Shown here piece after piece: positions 2,762-24,845 of a stretch of DNA of 64,000 nt. The notes beneath the pieces are model-generated. The model was not told the DNA's origin. It ran no database searches and was given only the letters and a program-made list of their open reading frames with translations. The stretch comes from Candidatus Sericytochromatia bacterium (lineage in GTDB: Bacteria > Cyanobacteriota > Sericytochromatia > S15B-MN24 > VGJW01): NCBI GenBank assembly GCA_035285865.1, contig JAYKHS010000014.1:64001-128000 (forward strand). Direction: 5' to 3'. The position numbers were made by a program, and so were the translations under genes. The stretch's first letter is position 1; each line of letters begins with the position of its first letter.

Positions 2762-4465
2762 ATGGAACGCGACGTCGCCGAGATGGGTCTGGTCATCGTG
2801 GGCGGGGGGCCTGCCGGCTTCTCGTGCGCGCTGCGGCTCGCCCAGCTCATCGATGCCCATAATGCCGACGTGGCCGCAGGCCGCGTCTCCGGCACGCCGC
2901 TCGACAAGGAGTCCATCGTCGTCCTCGAGAAAGCGACGGACATCGGCAGCCACCAGCTTTCGGGTGCCGTCCTCGACCCGCGGGCCCTGCGCGAGCTGGT
3001 GCCCGACTTCATGGCCAAGGGCTGCCCCGTCGAGTCGCCCGTGACCTCGGACGAGGTGCTGGTCCTCGGCGAGGACTGGCAGTTCCGCCTCCCCGTCGTG
3101 CCACCGGCCCTCGACAACCACGGGAACCTCATCGTCTCGCTCAACCGTTTCACGGGCTGGCTCGCCGGGCTCGTCGAGCAGGCCGGAATCACCGTTGCGC
3201 CGGGCATGCCCGTTGGCAGCGTGCTGTACGAGGACGGTCGCGTCACGGGAGTCCGTGGCACGGACAACGGTCTCGATCGTGACGGCAAGCCCAAGGCCGG
3301 GGCCTATCAGCCCGGAACCGACTTCATCGCACCATTGACCATTTTTGCCGAGGGCACGCGCGGCCATCTGGCCAAGGACCTGGTGGCTCGCCTTGGCCTG
3401 GATGCAGGGCGCCATCCCCAGCGGTGGTCGCAGGGCATCAAGGAAATCTGGAAGATCCGCCCCGAGAAGCACCAGTTGGGCAAGGTCACCCACACCATGG
3501 GCTGGCCGCTGCGCAGCGAGGAGTATGGCGGCAGCTTCATCTACCACATTGCCGACAACCACGTGTCCATCGGCTTCGTCTCCGGTCTCGAGTACGCCGA
3601 CCCGCGTTTCGATCCGCATCGGGTCATGCAGCAGTTCAAGACTCATCCCCTCGTGCGCGATCTGCTCGAAGGCGCCACGCTCGTGCGTTACGGGGCGAAG
3701 ACCATTCCCTCCGGCGGCTGGCACACCATGCCCAAGCTCTCTTTCCCCGGGGGCCTGCTGCTGGGCGACAGCGCTGCCCTCGTCAACGGCATGCGCCTCA
3801 AGGGCATCCACACCGCGATGAAGTCGGGCATGCTGGCGGCCGAGACCGCCTTCGAGGCGATGAAGCGCGGCGAGGCCCCGCAGGACCTGCTCGATGGCTA
3901 CGAGACCCGGCTGCGCTCGTCCTGGGTGGGCCAGGAACTGCGTGCCGTCCGGGACTTCCACCAGGGCTTCGAGCGCGGTTTCTTCGCCGGTCTCATCAAT
4001 GCCGGCTTCGTGACGGTCTCCGGGGGCAAAGGGCTCTTCACCGACAGCCTCGGGCACTCAGGCGGCCACACCCGGATGCAATCGCTTGCCGCCTACTATC
4101 CCGATGGCGTGCCGGCCGACGACTTCCGTCCGGATGGCGTGCTGACCTTCCGCAAGCTGGATGAGGTCATCAAGAGCGGCACCATCCATGAGGAGAATCA
4201 GCCCTGCCATCTCGTCATCGCCGAGGAGGCCCGCGAGGACATCTGCAACGACCGCTGCACGCGCGAGTTCGGCAATCCCTGTCAGCACTTCTGTCCCGCC
4301 CAGGTGTACGAGATGGTGGCCGCAGGCGAGGGCGAGCAGGCTCGGCTCGTGATCAACGCCTCGAATTGTGTCCACTGCAAGACCTGCGACATCATGGATC
4401 CCTATCAGGTCATCCAGTGGGTCGCGCCCGAAGCGGGCGGCGGTCCCGTCTACAGCGGGATGTAG
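2762..4465 (+). CDS. electron transfer flavoprotein:quinone oxidoreductase
   Basis: FAD motif IVGGGPAG, GSHQLSGA, KGIHTAMKSGMLAAE; C-terminal 4Fe-4S HEENQPCHL, FCPAQVYE, NCVHCKTCDIMDP. Confidence 0.93.
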   Translation: MERDVAEMGLVIVGGGPAGFSCALRLAQLIDAHNADVAAGRVSGTPLDKESIVVLEKATDIGSHQLSGAVLDPRALRELVPDFMAKGCPVESPVTSDEVLVLGEDWQFRLPVVPPALDNHGNLIVSLNRFTGWLAGLVEQAGITVAPGMPVGSVLYEDGRVTGVRGTDNGLDRDGKPKAGAYQPGTDFIAPLTIFAEGTRGHLAKDLVARLGLDAGRHPQRWSQGIKEIWKIRPEKHQLGKVTHTMGWPLRSEEYGGSFIYHIADNHVSIGFVSGLEYADPRFDPHRVMQQFKTHPLVRDLLEGATLVRYGAKTIPSGGWHTMPKLSFPGGLLLGDSAALVNGMRLKGIHTAMKSGMLAAETAFEAMKRGEAPQDLLDGYETRLRSSWVGQELRAVRDFHQGFERGFFAGLINAGFVTVSGGKGLFTDSLGHSGGHTRMQSLAAYYPDGVPADDFRPDGVLTFRKLDEVIKSGTIHEENQPCHLVIAEEAREDICNDRCTREFGNPCQHFCPAQVYEMVAAGEGEQARLVINASNCVHCKTCDIMDPYQVIQWVAPEAGGGPVYSGM

Positions 4466-4473
4466 CCATCGCG

Positions 4474-4503
4474 AGGCCCGTCGGTCCCCGTACCGGCGGG
4501 CCT
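4474..4503 (+). terminator. hairpin after ETF-QO
   Basis: AGGCCCGTCGGT...ACCGGCGGGCCT inverted repeat 9 nt after the stop; weak U tract. Confidence 0.5.
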
Positions 4504-4563
4504 TGTCGCATCCGGGGCTTGCGCCATCGTTGCGCCTTCGTCGCGCCTGCACACCCCAAACAG

Positions 4564-4597
4564 GAAGTCGGTCCGCCCGCACGGGCAGACCGACTTC
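4564..4597 (-). terminator. hairpin after ferredoxin
   Basis: GAAGTCGGTCCGCCCG/CGGGCAGACCGACTTC stem followed by CTGTTT on the minus strand. Confidence 0.6.
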
Positions 4598-4636
4598 GGA
4601 AACCGGAACAACGGCCGTGAGGCCGCTGCTGCAGCG

Positions 4637-4834
4637 TCAGTCCGGCTCGATGGCACCGTCGATCGGGCAGGCCGCCAGGCAGGCCCCGCACGAGATGCAC
4701 ACGGCCTCGTCGATGAAGTAGAAGTTGGTGCCCTTGGTGTTGGTGCCGTCTCCGGGATGGATGCAATCCACGGGACAGACGGGCACGCAGTCGGCGACGC
4801 CTTCACAGACGTCCTTGAGAATGACGTAGGACAT
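4637..4834 (-). CDS. 2[4Fe-4S]/7Fe-type ferredoxin (65 aa)
   Basis: CEGVADCVPVCPVDCI and CISCGACLAACP. Confidence 0.93.
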   Translation of the reverse strand: MSYVILKDVCEGVADCVPVCPVDCIHPGDGTNTKGTNFYFIDEAVCISCGACLAACPIDGAIEPD

Positions 4835-4924
4835 GAATGGAAATCCTGAAGCAAGCGGAGACGGGACGACTCCCTAGGTGTTTCATCCTAGGGTCGCGCG
4901 GAGCCTCTGTCAAACGGCAGCCCG

Positions 4925-5704
4925 TCAGTGCTGCAGTTTCCAGCCCGAGCGGAAGACGGCCGTGACTCCGGCAAGCGCCACCACGGCCAAGCCCCCGACG
5001 ATGGAGAAGCCGTGGAGCACCGGCAATGCGGCGTGGCCGGTGACGGCCCAGCGCAGCATGTCGACCATCGGCGTCATCGGATTGAGCCTGGCGAGGGTGG
5101 CCAGCGGACCGGGGAGGCCGTCCTGGTGGACGGACAGGAAGACGCCGGCCGTGTAGACCAGCGGGGTCACGAGGAAGGTCTGCGGGATGGACATCTGATC
5201 GAAGCTCTCGGCCGCCAGCCCCATCAGCAGGCCGAGGCTCGCGAAGCACACGGCCAGCAGGATGACGAGAGCCACGAGCGCCACCGGATGCACGGGCAGG
5301 CTGGCCCCGTACGGCGTACCGACGAGGAGGCCCACGCCAAGCACCAATCCGGCGATGAGCAGCGCGCGCAGGATGGTCCCGGACAGCAGGCCGAGCACCA
5401 TCTCGAGTCGGGACAGCGGGGCCACCAGGATCTCCTGGATGCTGCCCGTGAACCGCAGGATGAACAGCGAGGCCGCTGATTCGCCGAAGCTCGTCTCGAC
5501 GATTTGCATGAACATGAGTCCGGGCAGCAGGAAGGCGACGTAGGGCAGGCCCTCCATCTCGCCCACGGCACGGCCGAGGCCGATCACGAACACCGTCAGG
5601 AACAGCACGGTCGCGATGATCGGCGGCCAGACGACCTGGTTGATGATTCTGAAGGTCCGACGCAACTCCCTGCGGCACAGCGTGAGGAGACCGACGAAGT
5701 TCAT
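4925..5704 (-). CDS. ABC-2 type transporter permease (YadH-like)
   Basis: RELRR..RI..QVVWPPI, YVAFLLPGL, GSIQEILVAPLS, NPMTPMVDMLR; about 6 TM; ATGA overlap with the ATPase stop. Confidence 0.88.
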   Translation of the reverse strand: MNFVGLLTLCRRELRRTFRIINQVVWPPIIATVLFLTVFVIGLGRAVGEMEGLPYVAFLLPGLMFMQIVETSFGESAASLFILRFTGSIQEILVAPLSRLEMVLGLLSGTILRALLIAGLVLGVGLLVGTPYGASLPVHPVALVALVILLAVCFASLGLLMGLAAESFDQMSIPQTFLVTPLVYTAGVFLSVHQDGLPGPLATLARLNPMTPMVDMLRWAVTGHAALPVLHGFSIVGGLAVVALAGVTAVFRSGWKLQH

Positions 5705-6871: not shown

Positions 6872-7825
6872 ATGGACGCGCAACAACTGGTGACGGCTGT
6901 CCCTGGCTGCGGACCGTCCCGACCCGTGGGCATGCTCCGGGTCGAGGGCACGGAGGCCGCCGCGTTCCTCAATGGCTACACGACCCAGGAGGTCGCCACG
7001 CTGGTCCCCGGCGAGGTCCGGCTGGGCGCCATCACCGACTGGAAGGGCCAGGTGACGGATGTCGTGACCTTCGCGGGCCTGACGGATGCGGTGCTGGTCT
7101 CGGGCAGTCCAGGTCGTGCAGCAGAAGTCCACAAGGGCCTGCGGCGCTACCTGCTGGGCGTCGATGTCCGGCTCATGCCCGTGAGCGGTTGGCTGGCCCT
7201 CGAGTTGGACCCTGGGGCACGCCCGATGCCCGCGGTTCTCGAGGATACCGGGGCCATTGCCGCCGTACTCGGTCTCTCGGGGGTGCCGGGAGTCCGGGCG
7301 GTGCTGCTCGGTGCGGTCACGCCCTCCGCAGGCCCCGCTGCGCGGTTGCTCGTCCCCGAGGGTGATCTCCCTGCCTGGGGTGAGGCGATTCGGGCCGCCG
7401 GGTGGTCGTCGCGAGACCAGGAAACCTTCGACCGCCAGCGGATCCGATCGGGCTGGCCGGAGCCGGACCGGGATCTGCCGGCGGCCTGCAATCCCTGGGA
7501 GGCGCGGCTCGCACCCTTCGTCCGCATGGACAAGGGCTGCTATCTGGGCCAGGAAGTCGTGGCCCGCCTGATCAACTACAAGCGCGTCCAGCGCTGGTTG
7601 ATGGGCACCCGGTCCACGGCGGCCGTCCCCGAGGGCACGCCCCTCCTTTCCGGTGAGGAAACGGTCGGTCGCATGGGCTCGTCCGTCCCGGATGCGGCGG
7701 GCCAATGGGTGGGCCTTGCCCTCGTCGGGGCTGCCTTGGCGGTGCCCGGCGCTGTCGTCCGGACAGCCGAGGGGCAGGAACTGACGCTTGAGGAGCGGCC
7801 CCTGTGGGCCGGGATCACGGATTGA
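6872..7825 (+). CDS. ygfZ: folate-binding YgfZ/GcvT-family protein
   Basis: DKGCYLGQEVVAR signature; FLNGYTTQ N-terminal region. Confidence 0.88.
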   Translation: MDAQQLVTAVPGCGPSRPVGMLRVEGTEAAAFLNGYTTQEVATLVPGEVRLGAITDWKGQVTDVVTFAGLTDAVLVSGSPGRAAEVHKGLRRYLLGVDVRLMPVSGWLALELDPGARPMPAVLEDTGAIAAVLGLSGVPGVRAVLLGAVTPSAGPAARLLVPEGDLPAWGEAIRAAGWSSRDQETFDRQRIRSGWPEPDRDLPAACNPWEARLAPFVRMDKGCYLGQEVVARLINYKRVQRWLMGTRSTAAVPEGTPLLSGEETVGRMGSSVPDAAGQWVGLALVGAALAVPGAVVRTAEGQELTLEERPLWAGITD

Positions 7826-8477
7826 GGCGTGATCGCAGCCAACGGATGCCGAGGATGCCGGCCAGAAGGGTAAGCTGACGCCAGTCCGCCCGGGCCGCGA
7901 CATGCGGCGAACGGGCCCGGGAGGAGGGGCCGGCATGTTGTCCTGCGGTCCCGGAGGCCACGGTCCACGACACCGCCACCGCCGGCATGCCCTTGAAGCA
8001 ACCGGTGTCGCCCGAGGCCGGATCGTGGACGAGGGCAAACTGCCAGGGTTGGCGGAAGTGGTGCGCGTGCGTGTGCTGATCCGTGCCCGAAAGGAAGACG
8101 CCAAGGCCGGGATGCGTGTGGTACCAGCCGACCACGGCAAGCTCCGGAGCTTCCCTCGCCATCCGCGCCAGCAGGGCGTCCCACGTTTGCGGGGTGAAGG
8201 CAAGATGCACGCCGGAGCCCAGGGTGTCGGGAGCCTCGAAGGCCGTGGTGGCCTCGATCAGCGTGTCGGTGGCGTCATGGTGGACCTTGCCGAGCAGCAG
8301 GCCGCCCACCTCGCAGGAAGGTGACGCGGCCCCATGCCGTTCGATCAGGGCCAGGCAGGAAGCGTGCAGCACCACCGACGCGGATGAGGCTGACGGCCCC
8401 AGCGCACGCCGCCGCCCGGCCGGGTCTGTCGCGGCCTCGACCCACGGATCGGGCGTGGTCTCGCGCCACTCGATCAC
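7815..8477 (-). CDS. JAB/JAMM (Mov34/MPN/PAD-1) metalloprotease, putative deubiquitinase or Ubl-processing enzyme
   Basis: EVGGLLLG...VVGWYHTHPGLGVFLSGTD, complete E...HxHx7Sx2D motif; GTG start. Confidence 0.9.
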   Translation of the reverse strand: MIEWRETTPDPWVEAATDPAGRRRALGPSASSASVVLHASCLALIERHGAASPSCEVGGLLLGKVHHDATDTLIEATTAFEAPDTLGSGVHLAFTPQTWDALLARMAREAPELAVVGWYHTHPGLGVFLSGTDQHTHAHHFRQPWQFALVHDPASGDTGCFKGMPAVAVSWTVASGTAGQHAGPSSRARSPHVAARADWRQLTLLAGILGIRWLRSRLNP

Positions 8478-8481
8478 GGCG

Positions 8482-8997
8482 TCAGACGTCCCGCCATTCG
8501 AGGCGCGGCTTTGCGACCTCGGTGGCTTCTGCCGGTCCGGGCCGATCGGCCAGCGGAAACAGGTCCGGATGGGCTTCGTACCAGTCCGCGGCCTCGCCGT
8601 TCGCTGCGCTGTCGAAGTCGAAGAGCTGCGGATCGCAACGCAGGATGTCGATCAGCCGCATCACGAGGTCGCCCAGGGTCTCCCCGACCATCCAGCGCGA
8701 TCCCAAGCAGAACGTGCCGTTGGCGAAGACATGGGGATGGAAGACCGGCGACAAGGCCCGGACGATCGGTGCCTCGAGCGGATAGGCCGAGGTCAGTCGG
8801 ATCTCGATGCGGTGCTGTTCGCGGCGGACCGGGGTTTCGCCATCCAGCTTCTCGATGGCGGGCATCGTCAGGCGGATGAGGTGCCTGTCAGGCGGGGTGC
8901 CTTGCGATTGCAGGACCTCGACCACCGTCGGCAGTGTTTTCGCCACGGCGGCCAGCGCCCGGGCATCGGCATCGAGGCGACGTCGGCGGGCCTCCAT
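8482..8997 (-). CDS. ubiquitin-conjugating enzyme (E2/UBC fold)
   Basis: YPLEAPIV...PVFHPHVFANGTFCLG..W....TLGDLV...AANGEAADWY; catalytic Cys present. Confidence 0.88.
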   Translation of the reverse strand: MEARRRRLDADARALAAVAKTLPTVVEVLQSQGTPPDRHLIRLTMPAIEKLDGETPVRREQHRIEIRLTSAYPLEAPIVRALSPVFHPHVFANGTFCLGSRWMVGETLGDLVMRLIDILRCDPQLFDFDSAANGEAADWYEAHPDLFPLADRPGPAEATEVAKPRLEWRDV

Positions 8998-8998
8998 C

Positions 8999-9259
8999 TC
9001 AGGCCCCGGCCTCCAGCAGCGGCACCACTTCGAGCAGGTCTCCGCTCTGGACGCCGCAGGGCCCGAGCGCACCTTGCGCGGGCAACTGTCGGCCAAGGCG
9101 GACGCAACGCAGCATGAAGTCGGTGTCGCGCGGCAGGCGCCAGTTCTGACGGCTGGCCTCGATCAGCTCCTCGACCGTGTAGTCGATGGGCAGCCGGACT
9201 TCGGCCTGCCGCGACTTGTCGAGGGTCCGAATGGTCACGGCAATCACGTCGTCGTCCAC
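8999..9259 (-). CDS. ubiquitin-like beta-grasp protein (EsaB/YukD-like, 86 aa)
   Basis: IAVTIRTLD...EVRLPIDYTVEELI...LGPCGVQSGDLLEVVPLLEAGA; AGGAGG SD before GTG; lies between E1 and E2. Confidence 0.8.
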   Translation of the reverse strand: MDDDVIAVTIRTLDKSRQAEVRLPIDYTVEELIEASRQNWRLPRDTDFMLRCVRLGRQLPAQGALGPCGVQSGDLLEVVPLLEAGA

Positions 9260-9263
9260 GGAT

Positions 9264-10406
9264 TCATTCCTCCTGAATCCATGATGCCCCACAGGCGACC
9301 CACTGCGTCGTCAGATCCGCGATGCCGATCACGTGACCGGCAACCAGGCCCCACTCCGCAAGAGTGCGGTCCCGGTTCGGGGTCGTACCGTCGATGGCCT
9401 CGAGGGTCGTGACCCAGCGCTCCTCGTGGCATCCCGGGCAGGCTGCATCCCGTCGGGAAACCCGCGCCACCGGAGCCAGCACGGCCTCTTCGGTGGCACA
9501 TGTCCTGCACTCTAGGCTCACGGCCACCGCGAAGGGCAGCAGGATGCGCCGGTCCGCGTGACCGGCCAGCAGGTCCGTCGGCCGGATGGCCTCGGGTGCC
9601 GGTCCCTGCGCGAGGTCCGGCAGGCATCCGTGCTCGGGGCAGGACTCGGTTTCGGGCAGCAGGTCCTCGAGAAGGACGGGCGGATGGAGTTGTAGGGTCC
9701 GGCGCGTGCCCGCCGCCATCGGGGTCCATGTCGGAAACGCGAGGGCCAGGACCTGGTCCACCAGCATGGCTCCGGCCAGGGAGGCCGTCACGGCAGTGGT
9801 GGGCACGGCCGTTCCCGAGGATTCGCGCAGCAGACCGGCACAACTGCGGGACGCCTGCAGGCGGCGTTGCATGCCGGGGGTCATGCCGCAGGCGTAGCAG
9901 GCACCTGTCGTCCCGTCCCCGTAGCGGCTGACCTGGCACGCCTCGGCAGACAGCCCTCCGTCCAGATAGGGCACGCCCGCCCGCAGGCAGAGGCGGTTCA
10001 GGGCAAGGCGCGCTCCGACGGAGTCGAGGCAGCCGATGACTGCGTCGGCCTTTCGGACCGTCGCGATGCCGAGGTCTGTCCCCACGTCCCCGATCACCGC
10101 CTCCACATGCAGGCCGGGAGACAGTTCGCGCAGGCGTTCGGCCGCGACGAGGGCCTTTGGGCGGCCGAGATCGTCCGTGCGGAAAAGCACCGAGCGCACC
10201 AGGTTGCTGGCCTCGATGCGATCGCGGTCGAGGACGAGCACCTGCCCCACCCCGACCAGGGCCAGACCCTTCAGAACCTCGTTGCCGAGCGCTCCCGCAC
10301 CCGCCACGATGATCCGGGTCCGGGCCAGTCGCTCCGTGTCCCAGCCGGAAATCAGGCGATGGCGGGCGTGTCGGTCCCGCTCCGGCAGGGGGAAGGCGTC
10401 GCTCAC
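9264..10406 (-). CDS. ThiF/E1-like ubiquitin-activating enzyme
   Basis: GAGALGNE, DRDRIEASNLVRSVLF, CLDSVGAR, CYAC, SC (putative catalytic Cys), CPEH, extra CRTC/CPGC ribbon, TLAEWGL C-terminal domain. Confidence 0.9.
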   Translation of the reverse strand: MSDAFPLPERDRHARHRLISGWDTERLARTRIIVAGAGALGNEVLKGLALVGVGQVLVLDRDRIEASNLVRSVLFRTDDLGRPKALVAAERLRELSPGLHVEAVIGDVGTDLGIATVRKADAVIGCLDSVGARLALNRLCLRAGVPYLDGGLSAEACQVSRYGDGTTGACYACGMTPGMQRRLQASRSCAGLLRESSGTAVPTTAVTASLAGAMLVDQVLALAFPTWTPMAAGTRRTLQLHPPVLLEDLLPETESCPEHGCLPDLAQGPAPEAIRPTDLLAGHADRRILLPFAVAVSLECRTCATEEAVLAPVARVSRRDAACPGCHEERWVTTLEAIDGTTPNRDRTLAEWGLVAGHVIGIADLTTQWVACGASWIQEE

Positions 10407-11068
10407 GCGTCACCCGCTCCGTTCAGCGTGATCTGCTCGGGCGACTTGGGCAGGATCTCGAGCCCGTATGCGGGATGATCCCGCAGCAGTCCGCGGACCC
10501 GGACGTACCGGCCGACCCAGTCCTCGAACCGGTGTCCGGCCTGCTCCCAGCGCTCGAGGTCTCCGCTGAACACGACCAGTTTGAAACCGTCGAAGGGATT
10601 TCTGCTGGCGTGGAACTTGATGAAGTGGGTGCCGGTGGCCCGCGAGACCTGATGACCCAGCACCCGCCCCTCGAAGACCACGACGGTGTTGGCATGGCCC
10701 TCGAGGTCCGAGAGGCCCAGCACGCGCTCGGCCTGCCGATCCCCCGCGACGAGTGCCACCTGCCCGGGTTGGCCCAGTACCTGCCAGGACATGCCCGAGG
10801 TCTGCCGGCAGTTGACGCAGGCACCCGCATTGTGGGTCTGGAGGAAGGTCCACGAACTGGGGTGGTAGCCGGTCTGGCAGTGGGTGCACAGGACGATGCG
10901 GGCCCCGGGGACAAGCGGTGTCCCGTCGAGGGGATCGTGTGCCGTGCCGCCGGATTGCCCGAAGCTCACGGGCCGCGCGGGCTCGGGTCCTTCCTCGCCG
11001 GGTTCCGGCGGGGCACCGTTGTCCCGCCATTCGAGCGGGCGTCGCCCCCTAGAGGGTGGGGACGTCAT
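10403..11068 (-). CDS. RING/PHD-like zinc finger plus OB-fold protein (candidate E3)
   Basis: DPLDG..L..G..IVLCTHCQTGYHPSSW...GACVNC, then OB-like VVVFEGRV...FKLVVF...WVGRYVRVRG...LEI. Confidence 0.65.
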   Translation of the reverse strand: MTSPPSRGRRPLEWRDNGAPPEPGEEGPEPARPVSFGQSGGTAHDPLDGTPLVPGARIVLCTHCQTGYHPSSWTFLQTHNAGACVNCRQTSGMSWQVLGQPGQVALVAGDRQAERVLGLSDLEGHANTVVVFEGRVLGHQVSRATGTHFIKFHASRNPFDGFKLVVFSGDLERWEQAGHRFEDWVGRYVRVRGLLRDHPAYGLEILPKSPEQITLNGAGDA

Positions 11069-11540
11069 GTCGCCAGCCTTCGCGCCAGTCGGGCAGGTTC
11101 GGGCGACCGTCGACCGTCAGCGCGATCCCGGTGTCCCCCAGCAACTCGACGGTGATCGGTTGGTCCTGCTCCTTGCCCTGGAGCAGGTCGGCACGGACCC
11201 AGAAGGCACTGCCCCCCAGTTGCAGGGAGACCCAGCCTTCGAGCGTATCGCTTCCGCCAAGCTTCCCCATGACGCAGCGCACCTTGCCGCGGCCCAGATC
11301 TCCCTGAATGACGGAACGGCGCGCTTCGATGCGGCGCCAGGCCCACCAGGAGGGGATCAGGGCAAGCACCCCGGGGAAGAGCCATCCGGGCTCGCGTGAC
11401 CAGGCGGCCGCGCAAGCAGGCAGCAAGGTCGGCAACCACGCCGCACGGCCGGCCCACCGGAGCCAGGTCATTCGTTGGCGCAGGTGGCGCCGCTCCTCGT
11501 TCGTCAGGCTGCGCTGCGAGGTGAGGAATGCCGCCTTCAC
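11049..11540 (-). CDS. hypothetical membrane protein (1-2 TM)
   Basis: hydrophobic AAWLPTLLPACAAAW and WLFPGVLALIPSWWAW; GTGA overlap with the upstream gene. Confidence 0.6.
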   Translation of the reverse strand: MKAAFLTSQRSLTNEERRHLRQRMTWLRWAGRAAWLPTLLPACAAAWSREPGWLFPGVLALIPSWWAWRRIEARRSVIQGDLGRGKVRCVMGKLGGSDTLEGWVSLQLGGSAFWVRADLLQGKEQDQPITVELLGDTGIALTVDGRPNLPDWREGWRHDVPTL

Positions 11541-12220
11541 GGCAACAGGCCCTCGGCACGGCACGCTTCGATGAAGCGCGTGGCACGGCCCGGATCAGGG
11601 AACGCCATGCGTCGGGTCAGGGCAGGCTCTGCGCTCTGGCCGGACTCGACCATGCCACAGCGCCTGTAGAAGAGGTCCGAGCCCGATTTCAGCAACGCGT
11701 CCAGCACCAGGGCTGCCTCGAGGCGCGAGGCCTCGTAGAGGGAGGCGACAAGCAGGAGCTTGCCGATGCCCTTCAGCGGCGAACCCGGCAGGCGCTCGAG
11801 GTATCGGACCTCGAGCACGGGCACCGGGCCACTGCGGTCCATCCCGACGGCGACTCCACCCACGATGCGCCGGGCCGTACCGCCGGGGTCGAGCAACTCG
11901 ACGACCATCAGGCTCGAGGCCTTGCCGAAATCCACGTGGCCCTTGACGTCGCGTCCCGACGCGCGGCCGAGGGCCAGCCCGACCCAGTCGAACCAGGTGG
12001 GCTCCGGCCAACGTGCGAAGACCTGCGCGTCCTCCGGTCGGCCCCTGCGGATGACCACAGGTACGGGCACACCGTCCGGGCCTGTCAGCGCGGCCATCTC
12101 GATCAGCCCCGCAGGGCGTGCCTGGCCGATCAGCGATCCGGTCGACGTGCGTTCGCCGGGACGCCCCGGTCCCTTGGCCTTCCGGGACTTCCGGCGCTTG
12201 AAGAGCCTGGAGAGCCACAT
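11537..12220 (-). CDS. GNAT-family acetyltransferase-like protein
   Basis: LEVRYLER...KGIGKLLL (motif A-like) and LFYRRCGM (motif B-like). Confidence 0.65.
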   Translation of the reverse strand: MWLSRLFKRRKSRKAKGPGRPGERTSTGSLIGQARPAGLIEMAALTGPDGVPVPVVIRRGRPEDAQVFARWPEPTWFDWVGLALGRASGRDVKGHVDFGKASSLMVVELLDPGGTARRIVGGVAVGMDRSGPVPVLEVRYLERLPGSPLKGIGKLLLVASLYEASRLEAALVLDALLKSGSDLFYRRCGMVESGQSAEPALTRRMAFPDPGRATRFIEACRAEGLLP

Positions 12221-23345: not shown

Positions 23346-24845
23346 ATGTTCAAGCCGGAGATGGGCGTCCGCTCCCCGTCGGGCCTGCTCAGGCACAAGG
23401 GGCTGACGGGCGAGTTGCCGGCCATCGACGGTGGCGAGAATCCGCAGGAGGCTCGCGCGGCCAAGGCCCCCAATCGGCCATCCCCCGGACCTTCGGCCAC
23501 GACGCAGGACGGCTTCGCGGGCAGCCGGGATTGGCAAGCGGCCATCGACAGGATGGCTTCCGGATTGACCCGGGGGCCGGTGGACGCTCCTGTCGGCGAG
23601 CCGACGCCGGCTCCGAGGCCGTTGCCACAGGCCGCCGAGCCGAATCCCGCGGAGCCGCTCCCGGCGTTCCGCAGGGGAACCGCCCAGCAGATCCAGGCGA
23701 CATTCATCGCCCAGTCCTACGGTGGTGGCGGACACCCCATGGCGGCTGTTCCCGAGGATCTGGCCAAGCGTCTGGGCGGCGATGGGCAGGCCCTCAGGGC
23801 GCTTGAACTGCTGATGGTCCGCGGCATTGCCGAGCGGATGGACAGTCGCGGGAACCGGGTGATCGATCACCTGCGTGCCATCCTCGACATGCCCGTCGTC
23901 GCCGGACGTCCCAGCCCGTTGCAGGTCGCACGGGAGCTGATGGACGGCCTGTTGTCCCCCCACAGCATCCAGCAGGGGCAGGGGACCTTCAGCTGCACGG
24001 CCGCGACCATCCAGGGCATCCTCGCCAGCACGAATCCCGGTGAGTATATGCGCGTGGTCCGGGGCCTCGTCTTCGAGGGTGAGGTCCAGACTCAGGGCGG
24101 GGATGTCTTGAAGGCCGATCTGCGTGGCCTGAAGGTGGACGAGGGGCGGAACGTCACCGAAGACATTTTCCAGGAGTCCGTGATGGCCTTCGGGAAGGCC
24201 ATGGGGGACGGTGGTGGTACCAGAACCTATGGCAACGGTTCCTACGGCAGCGGCAGCATGCCGCGGACACCTGCCCAGTCCCCTGCCTCCGGTGCAGCCC
24301 AGCCGAAGGCCCCGCCTCAGGCGCCCGCAAGCGGCAGCAAGGCCGGGGCGGTCAAGCCCCCGCCACCGCCCCAGCGTCGGTGGGGATCCGAACTGGGTGG
24401 CGGTCACGATGGGCTGACGTCGGCTCAATTCACCGGCATCGTGCAGTCGCTGACCGGTCAGAAGTCCGCGGCCATGGAGCCCAGCGACGGTTTCACCAGG
24501 CAGGCGATGCTCGCGATTCTGGGCGAGCTGCTGCACAACGGTCCGGTTGCCGTCGGCATCGCCGGGACCGACAACGAGGGCAAGCCCACGATGCACGCGG
24601 TTCGCGTGACGGCGAGTGCCAACGGCGTCATCACCTTCGAGGACTCGGGCACCGGCGAGTCGAAGTCGGCACCCGTCGATGAGTTCCACTCCAGACTCAA
24701 GATGATCATGGTGCCTTTCGAGGAGTACGACCGCCTGACCGGACTGGGCCTCAGCACCGGCCTGCGCACGATGCCCAGCGGTGGTGGCGGTGGGGGTGGT
24801 GGCGGTCTGGTCGGGCCGAGCGCCGGCCGCATGGCCCTGAAGTAG
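23346..24845 (+). CDS. hypothetical protein with a putative papain-like (Q-C-H-D) peptidase core
   Basis: IQQGQGTFSCTAATIQ...NPGEYMRVVRGL...MHAVRV...ITFEDSG; low-complexity Pro/Gly segments. Confidence 0.6.
   Translation: MFKPEMGVRSPSGLLRHKGLTGELPAIDGGENPQEARAAKAPNRPSPGPSATTQDGFAGSRDWQAAIDRMASGLTRGPVDAPVGEPTPAPRPLPQAAEPNPAEPLPAFRRGTAQQIQATFIAQSYGGGGHPMAAVPEDLAKRLGGDGQALRALELLMVRGIAERMDSRGNRVIDHLRAILDMPVVAGRPSPLQVARELMDGLLSPHSIQQGQGTFSCTAATIQGILASTNPGEYMRVVRGLVFEGEVQTQGGDVLKADLRGLKVDEGRNVTEDIFQESVMAFGKAMGDGGGTRTYGNGSYGSGSMPRTPAQSPASGAAQPKAPPQAPASGSKAGAVKPPPPPQRRWGSELGGGHDGLTSAQFTGIVQSLTGQKSAAMEPSDGFTRQAMLAILGELLHNGPVAVGIAGTDNEGKPTMHAVRVTASANGVITFEDSGTGESKSAPVDEFHSRLKMIMVPFEEYDRLTGLGLSTGLRTMPSGGGGGGGGGLVGPSAGRMALK

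Follow-up and report, generated by a model that had tools for sequence, protein, structure and literature searches.

Bacterial ubiquitin-like (Ubl) operons reportedly include a RING family, Prokaryotic RING finger family 1 (Prok-RING_1, Pfam PF14446), described by Burroughs, Iyer and Aravind in 2011. Passages of four papers (PMC7159879, PMC10557695, PMC11601596 and PMC11601603) credit the prokaryotic RING E3 genes of Ubl operons to Burroughs 2011. A review (PMC11354881) states, in its passage on bacterial RINGs, that two ligand pairs are missing from some of them, leaving the central-hairpin and C-terminal pairs; the finger analyzed here has this ligand pattern. This half-zinc statement probably derives from Burroughs 2011, because a look-up in the cited source (PMC6274744) turned up no such passage. 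SP-RINGs keep the distal zinc and have lost the E2-proximal zinc, according to the relevant part of PMC10873205, and a passage of PMC4678705 reports the same site loss in alpha-COP. The bench-studied bacterial conjugation systems CBASS Cap2, Bil and Bub are described, in the passages that treat them, as being without a RING E3, and bacterial RING operons are called uncharacterised there.

Prokaryotic RING E3s in Ubl operons have already been predicted, and half-zinc forms are mentioned in the review. The fusion of such a finger to an OB fold appears new within the literature searched, namely the main text of openly accessible papers, where no description of a bacterial Ubl operon with a finger-OB E3 was found; the relevant passages of PMC1779556 do not describe the operon. 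Compact, with five genes that include an E3 candidate of small size and soluble type and an E2 of eukaryote-like type, the operon allows direct tests of whether bacteria employ a full E1-E2-E3 cascade for their own purposes and of how its targets are selected.

A five-gene Ubl operon with a finger-OB protein

The window is a stretch of 64,000 nucleotides from a Candidatus Sericytochromatia bacterium. On its minus strand lie, in this order, genes for a finger-OB protein, an E1, a Ubl, an E2 and a JAB peptidase. The features are listed below by window position.

7815..8477, minus strand: JAB/JAMM peptidase (Pfam JAB, E 3e-11)
8482..8997, minus strand: E2, eukaryote-like (Rad6/UBE2B-like), with C97 and a Y72-P73-L74 loop (Pfam UQ_con, E 4e-8)
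8999..9259, minus strand: YukD-like ubiquitin-like protein, 86 aa (Pfam YukD, E 7e-6)
9264..10406, minus strand: E1 of the ThiF family, 380 aa with one ThiF domain (Pfam ThiF, E 7e-44)
10403..11068, minus strand: candidate E3, the finger-OB gene, a 221-aa ORF with an ATG start
10421..10732, minus strand: OB fold of AspRS/AsnRS/RPA type in the predicted model, about residues 113-216
10778..10951, minus strand: putative one-zinc RING/U-box-like finger, residues 40-97 (ligand positions at 10808-10936)
11021..11041, minus strand: [IL]-x-W motif of the finger-OB protein, short and lying in its disordered N-terminal region (residues 10-16)
11049..11564, minus strand: membrane-type ORF overlapping the start of the finger gene, no Pfam match
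11537..12220, minus strand: upstream ORF, no Pfam or NCBIfam match, kept in most Sericytochromatia loci

The TGA stop of the finger-OB ORF overlaps the E1 start codon. The E1 carries a conserved [YF/R]SC motif, which matched 27 of 29 E1s and failed in two; its cysteine, C189 here, is taken by analogy as the putative catalytic residue. Near the C-terminus of the Ubl stands a conserved Gly, after which comes a short tail of variable sequence. The best solved match to a profile of 30 operon E2s is UBE2B/Rad6 (E 1e-16). Residues R7, Y72, P73, C97 and W102 are invariant in these 30 proteins, and the E2 retains the canonical surface for RING docking. The membrane-type ORF is present in most Sericytochromatia loci and was not seen in the distant clade.

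The operon shares with BilABCD and Bub an E1, an E2, a JAB peptidase and a Ubl with a conserved Gly and a short tail, as reported for Bil Ubls in a passage of PMC10557695. In contrast to these systems, it is ordered E1-Ubl-E2-JAB, its E1 has a single adenylation domain, its E2 is a canonical UQ_con protein, and an E3-like gene is added as the fifth. PADLOC gave weak hits to BilD (21.6 bits) and BilC (16.2 bits) for the operon. Neither NCBIfam nor PADLOC has a model for the finger-OB protein, and the family is without a name in Pfam, NCBIfam and PADLOC, the Atlas holding unnamed clusters only. The same genome holds a second pair of E1-like and JAB-like genes (G000:C3, about 120000-123400), perhaps another Ubl system.

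A word-index search yielded 14 relatives among 496 candidates, the close ones being Sericytochromatia and related assemblies, and a profile search yielded 465 clusters at 50% identity, the best 150 of which were considered. Finger and OB fold occur together in 147 of the 164 sequences examined; after a further search the finger was found in 220 of 234 proteins and both domains in 215. In a sample of the phylum, 13 of 301 genomes match, including all seven others of the window's family. As judged from a small number of source names, the distant homologs range over Sericytochromatia, Colwellia, Chloroflexi and Gammaproteobacteria.

The linkage of the finger-OB gene to E1, Ubl, E2 and JAB is tight, in support of the preliminary description. 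The E1 gene lies directly downstream of the finger-OB gene in all six named genome loci, and E1, Ubl, E2 and JAB are all present in the five whose contigs are long enough. For the distant clade, 47 metagenome loci were picked by the OB motif alone, and nine with fewer than 600 bases downstream were dropped. E1 is the next gene in 36 of the remaining 38, the exceptions being L033 and L069. All four genes are present in 21 of 22 distant loci with at least 3200 bases downstream (exception L057); just below this cut-off lie L033, with 3182 bases and none of the four genes, and L073, with 3190 bases and all four. After merging at 80% identity, the counts are 31/33 for E1 and 18/19 for all four genes.

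Three further features were noted. An extra finger-only gene lies between the finger-OB gene and E1 at L025:2696-3193, and one locus has two finger-OB genes (L058:367-1386 and 4447-5097), one of them far from the operon. Distant E2s often end in a four-cysteine ribbon (L027, L029, L034, L044, L049, L050, L055, L056 and L058), and the linker of some finger-OB proteins contains an inserted ribbon of similar type.

Among flanking ORFs, of which 83 of the 118 listed were scanned, restriction, CBASS, prophage or mobile-element neighbours occur at 8 of 17 distant loci, a count made without a control. The operon's neighbours in Sericytochromatia are ordinary genes. A role in defence is therefore a lead only.

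The finger-OB protein is best explained as the operon's E3 adaptor, with an OB fold that would choose targets bound to ssDNA or RNA. Our judgement of this combined reading is evenly balanced; that the protein is an E3-type adaptor is in itself quite probable, and that the OB fold of such an adaptor reads nucleic acid is modestly favoured. From the observed sequences, their conservation, the operon linkage and the predicted folds, we infer the zinc count, E2 docking, ligase activity, nucleic-acid binding and a biological role along the following lines. JAB would trim the Ubl to its conserved Gly. E1 would adenylate the Ubl and pass it via C189 to C97 of E2. The finger would dock onto E2 through L47 and L76, with a D-[AP]-x-[TSDE]...[ST] hydrogen-bond network replacing zinc as the support of the finger's first loop. 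Targets would be brought in by the OB fold, and JAB would reverse the mark.

Several observations speak against this explanation. Bil operons conjugate without an encoded E3, according to passages of PMC11601603 and PMC10557695; L033 and L069 lack a neighbouring E1; and a Vibrio plasmid carries a finger-only ORF without annotated Ubl genes.

The OB fold, its replacements and the N-terminus

The AlphaFold model of the whole protein (mean pLDDT 79.3, pTM 0.73) is disordered in residues 1-40 and confident in the finger and the C-terminal barrel. No Pfam model matches the OB region of the 221-aa protein. The OB fold named in the preliminary description was nevertheless recovered by a fold search with the C-terminal domain model, with Z scores up to 9.5. 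The matches include the anticodon domains of AspRS, AsnRS and LysRS, PolC, RPA and Stn1/Ten1 (Z 8-9.5, 82-96 aligned residues), and Foldseek matched the model with an E value of about 1e-4. Most OB matches are tRNA- or ssDNA-binding domains. Relatives comprising the OB without the finger include fusions to PLD nucleases.

A possible reading, on the unlikely side, keeps the E3 adaptor and has the OB fold recognise a protein surface, such as that of a membrane or phage protein, rather than nucleic acid. The best OB match is in fact an engineered protein-binding OBody (Z 9.5), YgiW is also among the matches, and several OB-only relatives start with signal-peptide-like sequence. A transmembrane (TM) segment is predicted in 108 of the 182 homologs that have 40 or more N-terminal residues, followed in 81 of the 108 by positive charge, a pattern pointing to a cytoplasmic finger-OB portion; the 221-aa protein itself has no predicted TM segment. 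The finger also occurs joined to TPR and PPC-like domains. One protein combines three fingers with TPR, and a cyanobacterial operon (L024:867-5329) encodes an E1, a Ubl, an E2, an E2-JAB fusion and a further-decayed finger with a TM segment and a PPC-like tail; a Band 7-FHA protein comes next. Bil systems attach their tag to phage structural proteins, according to a passage of PMC11601603. A protein-binding OB fold is harder to reconcile with the predominance of tRNA- and ssDNA-binding matches and with the PLD and thermonuclease fusions that neighbour the OB in sequence searches and in structure searches of the Atlas. It also fits poorly with the domain that takes the OB's place in one related genus: in two genomes the fusion partner of the finger is HIRAN (E 4e-14; L015:378-1013 and L016:1396-2025), in a gene that comes after E1-Ubl-E2-JAB in the same kind of operon. 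This form is rare, with 2 full-length clusters among 62 matches. Nucleic-acid targeting, on balance likely, draws support from the type of OB fold, from relatives fused to nucleases and from the exchange for HIRAN; it loses support through the OBody match, the TPR and PPC fusions and the signal-peptide-like starts of OB-only relatives. The HIRAN, TM/PPC-like and TPR forms further indicate that the finger keeps its place among the conjugation genes as its fusion partner varies.

The disordered N-terminus carries a short motif that recurs in the operon. In 94 of 133 proteins, I-x-[WF] occurs in the 42 aa that precede the finger, compared with 11.3 expected from shuffled sequences. The same [IL]-E-W-R peptide is found at the C-terminus of the E2 (8485-8502), at the N-terminus of the JAB peptidase (8461-8477) and at the N-terminus of the finger protein (11021-11041). 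More generally, [IL]-x-[WF] ends most E2s and starts most JABs, and W168 of the E2 is at least 90% conserved. Speculatively, the [IL]-x-W motifs of E3, E2 and JAB could share a single binding partner, for which the Ubl is a candidate.

A broader reading, rather unlikely as a whole, is a bacterial nucleic-acid-guided Ubl ligase built from a Rad6-type E2 and a one-zinc RING. OB or HIRAN would find exposed ssDNA or RNA, for example at stalled forks or in DNA that invades at the membrane, and the bound proteins would be tagged; this reading includes a parallel to the logic of Rad6-Rad18/Rad5, an independent SP-RING-like zinc loss and an [IL]-x-W docking motif shared by the E3, the E2 and the deubiquitinase. 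Rad6 works with Rad18 or Rad5/HLTF, so that a Rad6-like E2 is paired with a RING partner that bears a nucleic-acid-binding domain; the variant with RING-like finger and HIRAN in one protein is reminiscent of the Rad5/HLTF layout. Unlike these partners, the finger-OB protein has no helicase domain and no PCNA-type target known, and any functional likeness is putative.

A RING/U-box-like finger with one predicted zinc

A model of the finger alone (pLDDT 90.6) is predicted to adopt a RING/U-box fold. Foldseek returned no match at E <= 0.001, and its best rows were a U-box (probability 0.97) and then RINGs. A wide fold search was led by the U-box 3lrq (Z 6.8-7.0, rmsd 2.8-2.9, 61 aligned), with Ring1B close by (Z 6.8, rmsd 2.6, 60 aligned) and U-box matches spanning Z 5.2-7.0; all of these values lie below 8, where the tool cautions that scores can reflect a common arrangement. 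The case for the fold therefore rests on the uniformity of the lists and their agreement with the ligand spacing. A second fold search agreed, and RING and U-box matches dominate the results overall (rmsd 2.6-3.0, about 60 aligned). The top-50 lists consist almost entirely of RING, U-box or related fingers, with no PHD finger or simple zinc ribbon prominent among them, although such folds may match further down. PHD fingers have a Trp two residues before ligand 7, and this Trp is absent here, position 82 being G in 84 and S in 23 of 123 sequences. A sequence search of the PDB with the finger-OB profile found nothing below E 0.5.

Two hydrophobic positions, L47 and L76 in the 221-aa protein, presumably correspond to the E2-contact positions of RINGs. 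Position 47 is hydrophobic in 218 and position 76 in all 220 of the fingers found. Conversely, the Pro after ligand 7 is not conserved (position 85 is V in 153 and C in 38 of 220), and the linchpin position 88 is R or K in only 41/220, being Arg in the 221-aa protein. In the absence of a conserved linchpin, the finger would act mainly by proximity with weak allosteric activation.

The lack of a conserved Pro and linchpin, together with the modest fold scores and the closeness of Slx1 (Z 6.5), p300 (6.2) and ZZ (5.5), within about 1 Z of the E3s, count against an E3. They allow a different, unlikely reading: the finger could be a RING-fold scaffold or dimerisation module like that of Slx1, and the protein a sensor or the main E2 substrate rather than a ligase. 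The Slx1, p300 and ZZ folds tie with E3 RINGs, linchpin and Pro are not conserved, and K163 in the OB fold, kept in 114 of 123 sequences, could be an acceptor. This reading is opposed by the E2 with its canonical RING-docking surface, by the conservation of the hydrophobic positions 47 and 76, and by the persistence of the finger as its partner domain changes, which is expected of an E3. Moreover, the UBR4 hemiRING, a one-zinc E3, functions without a linchpin, according to the part of PMC10873205 that treats it, and provides by analogy a precedent for a one-zinc finger-OB E3 of the same kind.

The ligand positions were read as the preliminary description had given them. With C4HC3 spacing, positions 1-8 are D45, D48, C61, C64, H69, S72, C84 and C87, so that ligands 1, 2 and 6 are D, D and S, and 3, 4, 7 and 8 are intact. 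Site 1 would comprise D45/D48/H69/S72 and site 2 C61/C64/C84/C87. Six of these, D45, D48, C61, H69, C84 and C87, are the same in all 15 close sequences, which argues that the pattern is not due to chance. Across the family, counted in 220 fingers from 234 proteins, position 1 is D in 214 and C in 3; position 2 is T in 148, D in 35, E in 22 and S in 11; position 5 is H in 140 and Q in 67; and position 6 is S in 174, T in 41 and C in 3, with Ser or Thr in 215. At site 2, 187 fingers have four Cys and 216 read C/[CD]/C/C. These counts indicate that the loss of site 1 is old and fixed. The residues in place of its ligands would suit hydrogen bonding, and the finger is predicted to bind one zinc. 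The one-zinc cross-brace finger proposed at the outset is supported by the family-wide SP-RING pattern, with the distal site present and the E2-proximal site gone, and by the RING/U-box-like predicted fold. Its D-P-x-T type knuckle resembles that of U-boxes.

The invariance of D45, D48 and H69 in the 15 close sequences would also fit a second metal still bound by these residues in this clade. We regard this as very unlikely, because Thr at position 2 (148/220) and Gln at position 5 (67/220) argue against a metal site across the family, and both fit a hydrogen-bond network.

The finger shares the loss of the proximal zinc, with the distal one kept, with the SP-RINGs of the Siz/PIAS/Mms21 SUMO E3s, and its model matches the Mms21 SP-RING at Z 5.2 and U-boxes at Z 5.2-7.0. 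In contrast to SP-RINGs, it is bacterial, has CxxC at positions 3-4 and is without a PINIT or SAP domain; no Pfam domain of Siz/PIAS or Mms21 is found in the protein. Its partners are a YukD-like Ubl and a Rad6-like E2, whereas SP-RINGs act in the context of SUMO and Ubc9. Parallel loss of the zinc site appears more likely than descent. If true, loss of a zinc site in the SP-RING/U-box manner would have arisen in bacteria as well.

With Prok-RING_1 the finger-OB protein has in common the C4HC3 spacing, a weak profile match and the neighbourhood of E1, E2, Ubl and JAB. It differs in scoring below the Pfam cut-off, in the replacement of site 1 by D/T/H-Q/S, in the fusion to OB (or HIRAN), in an often present N-terminal membrane anchor and in the [IL]-x-W motifs. 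Residues 52-95 match PF14446 with E 8e-4 and 19.7 bits, below the curated cut-off of 29.1, and the best score among 136 homologs is 26.5 bits, also below it. The family, which is wide and for the most part predicted to be membrane-anchored, is a derived branch related to the prokaryotic RING E3s predicted before; the preliminary description mentions none of this. The protein likely works like an SP-RING/U-box E3, standing outside Prok-RING_1 by score and ligands and outside SP-RING by context.

Cys is found at both positions 1 and 6 in three homologs (P0061, P0068 and P0077), which ties the finger to C4HC3; none of the 220 fingers has all eight C4HC3 ligands. These homologs were considered as the ancestral state and rejected as such, since they are nested inside the family in a midpoint-rooted tree of 64 of the 215 finger-OB proteins. 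Regain of Cys or exchange of the finger is possible.

A simple zinc ribbon with an OB fold, unrelated to RING E3s, was the outcome that the preliminary description had named as refuting its proposal; it is barely credible, since the weak match of the finger profile to Sec24 (E about 0.6) and to nine cyanobacterial ORFs of roughly 830 aa (E 1e-4 to 8e-4; the two checked read as UvrA) stands against a model in which the helix and hairpin of a RING align over about 60 residues and against the make-up of the top-50 lists.

An intact C4HC3 finger of Prok-RING_1 type (24.3 bits) occurs in a 471-aa protein of the same genome, outside the window, at G000:C14 about 24501-24623 (L074:1156-2571, minus strand), with no Ubl genes recognised within 3 kb. 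Profile comparison relates it weakly to the finger of the finger-OB protein (probability 6.6%, 24 columns). A plasmid search with a distant family member gave four finger-only matches, and the two inspected were without annotated Ubl genes. One is a 70-aa ORF on a Vibrio plasmid (L021:7983-8195, NZ_CP072682.1), located beside a cytosine methyltransferase and Dnd-related genes.
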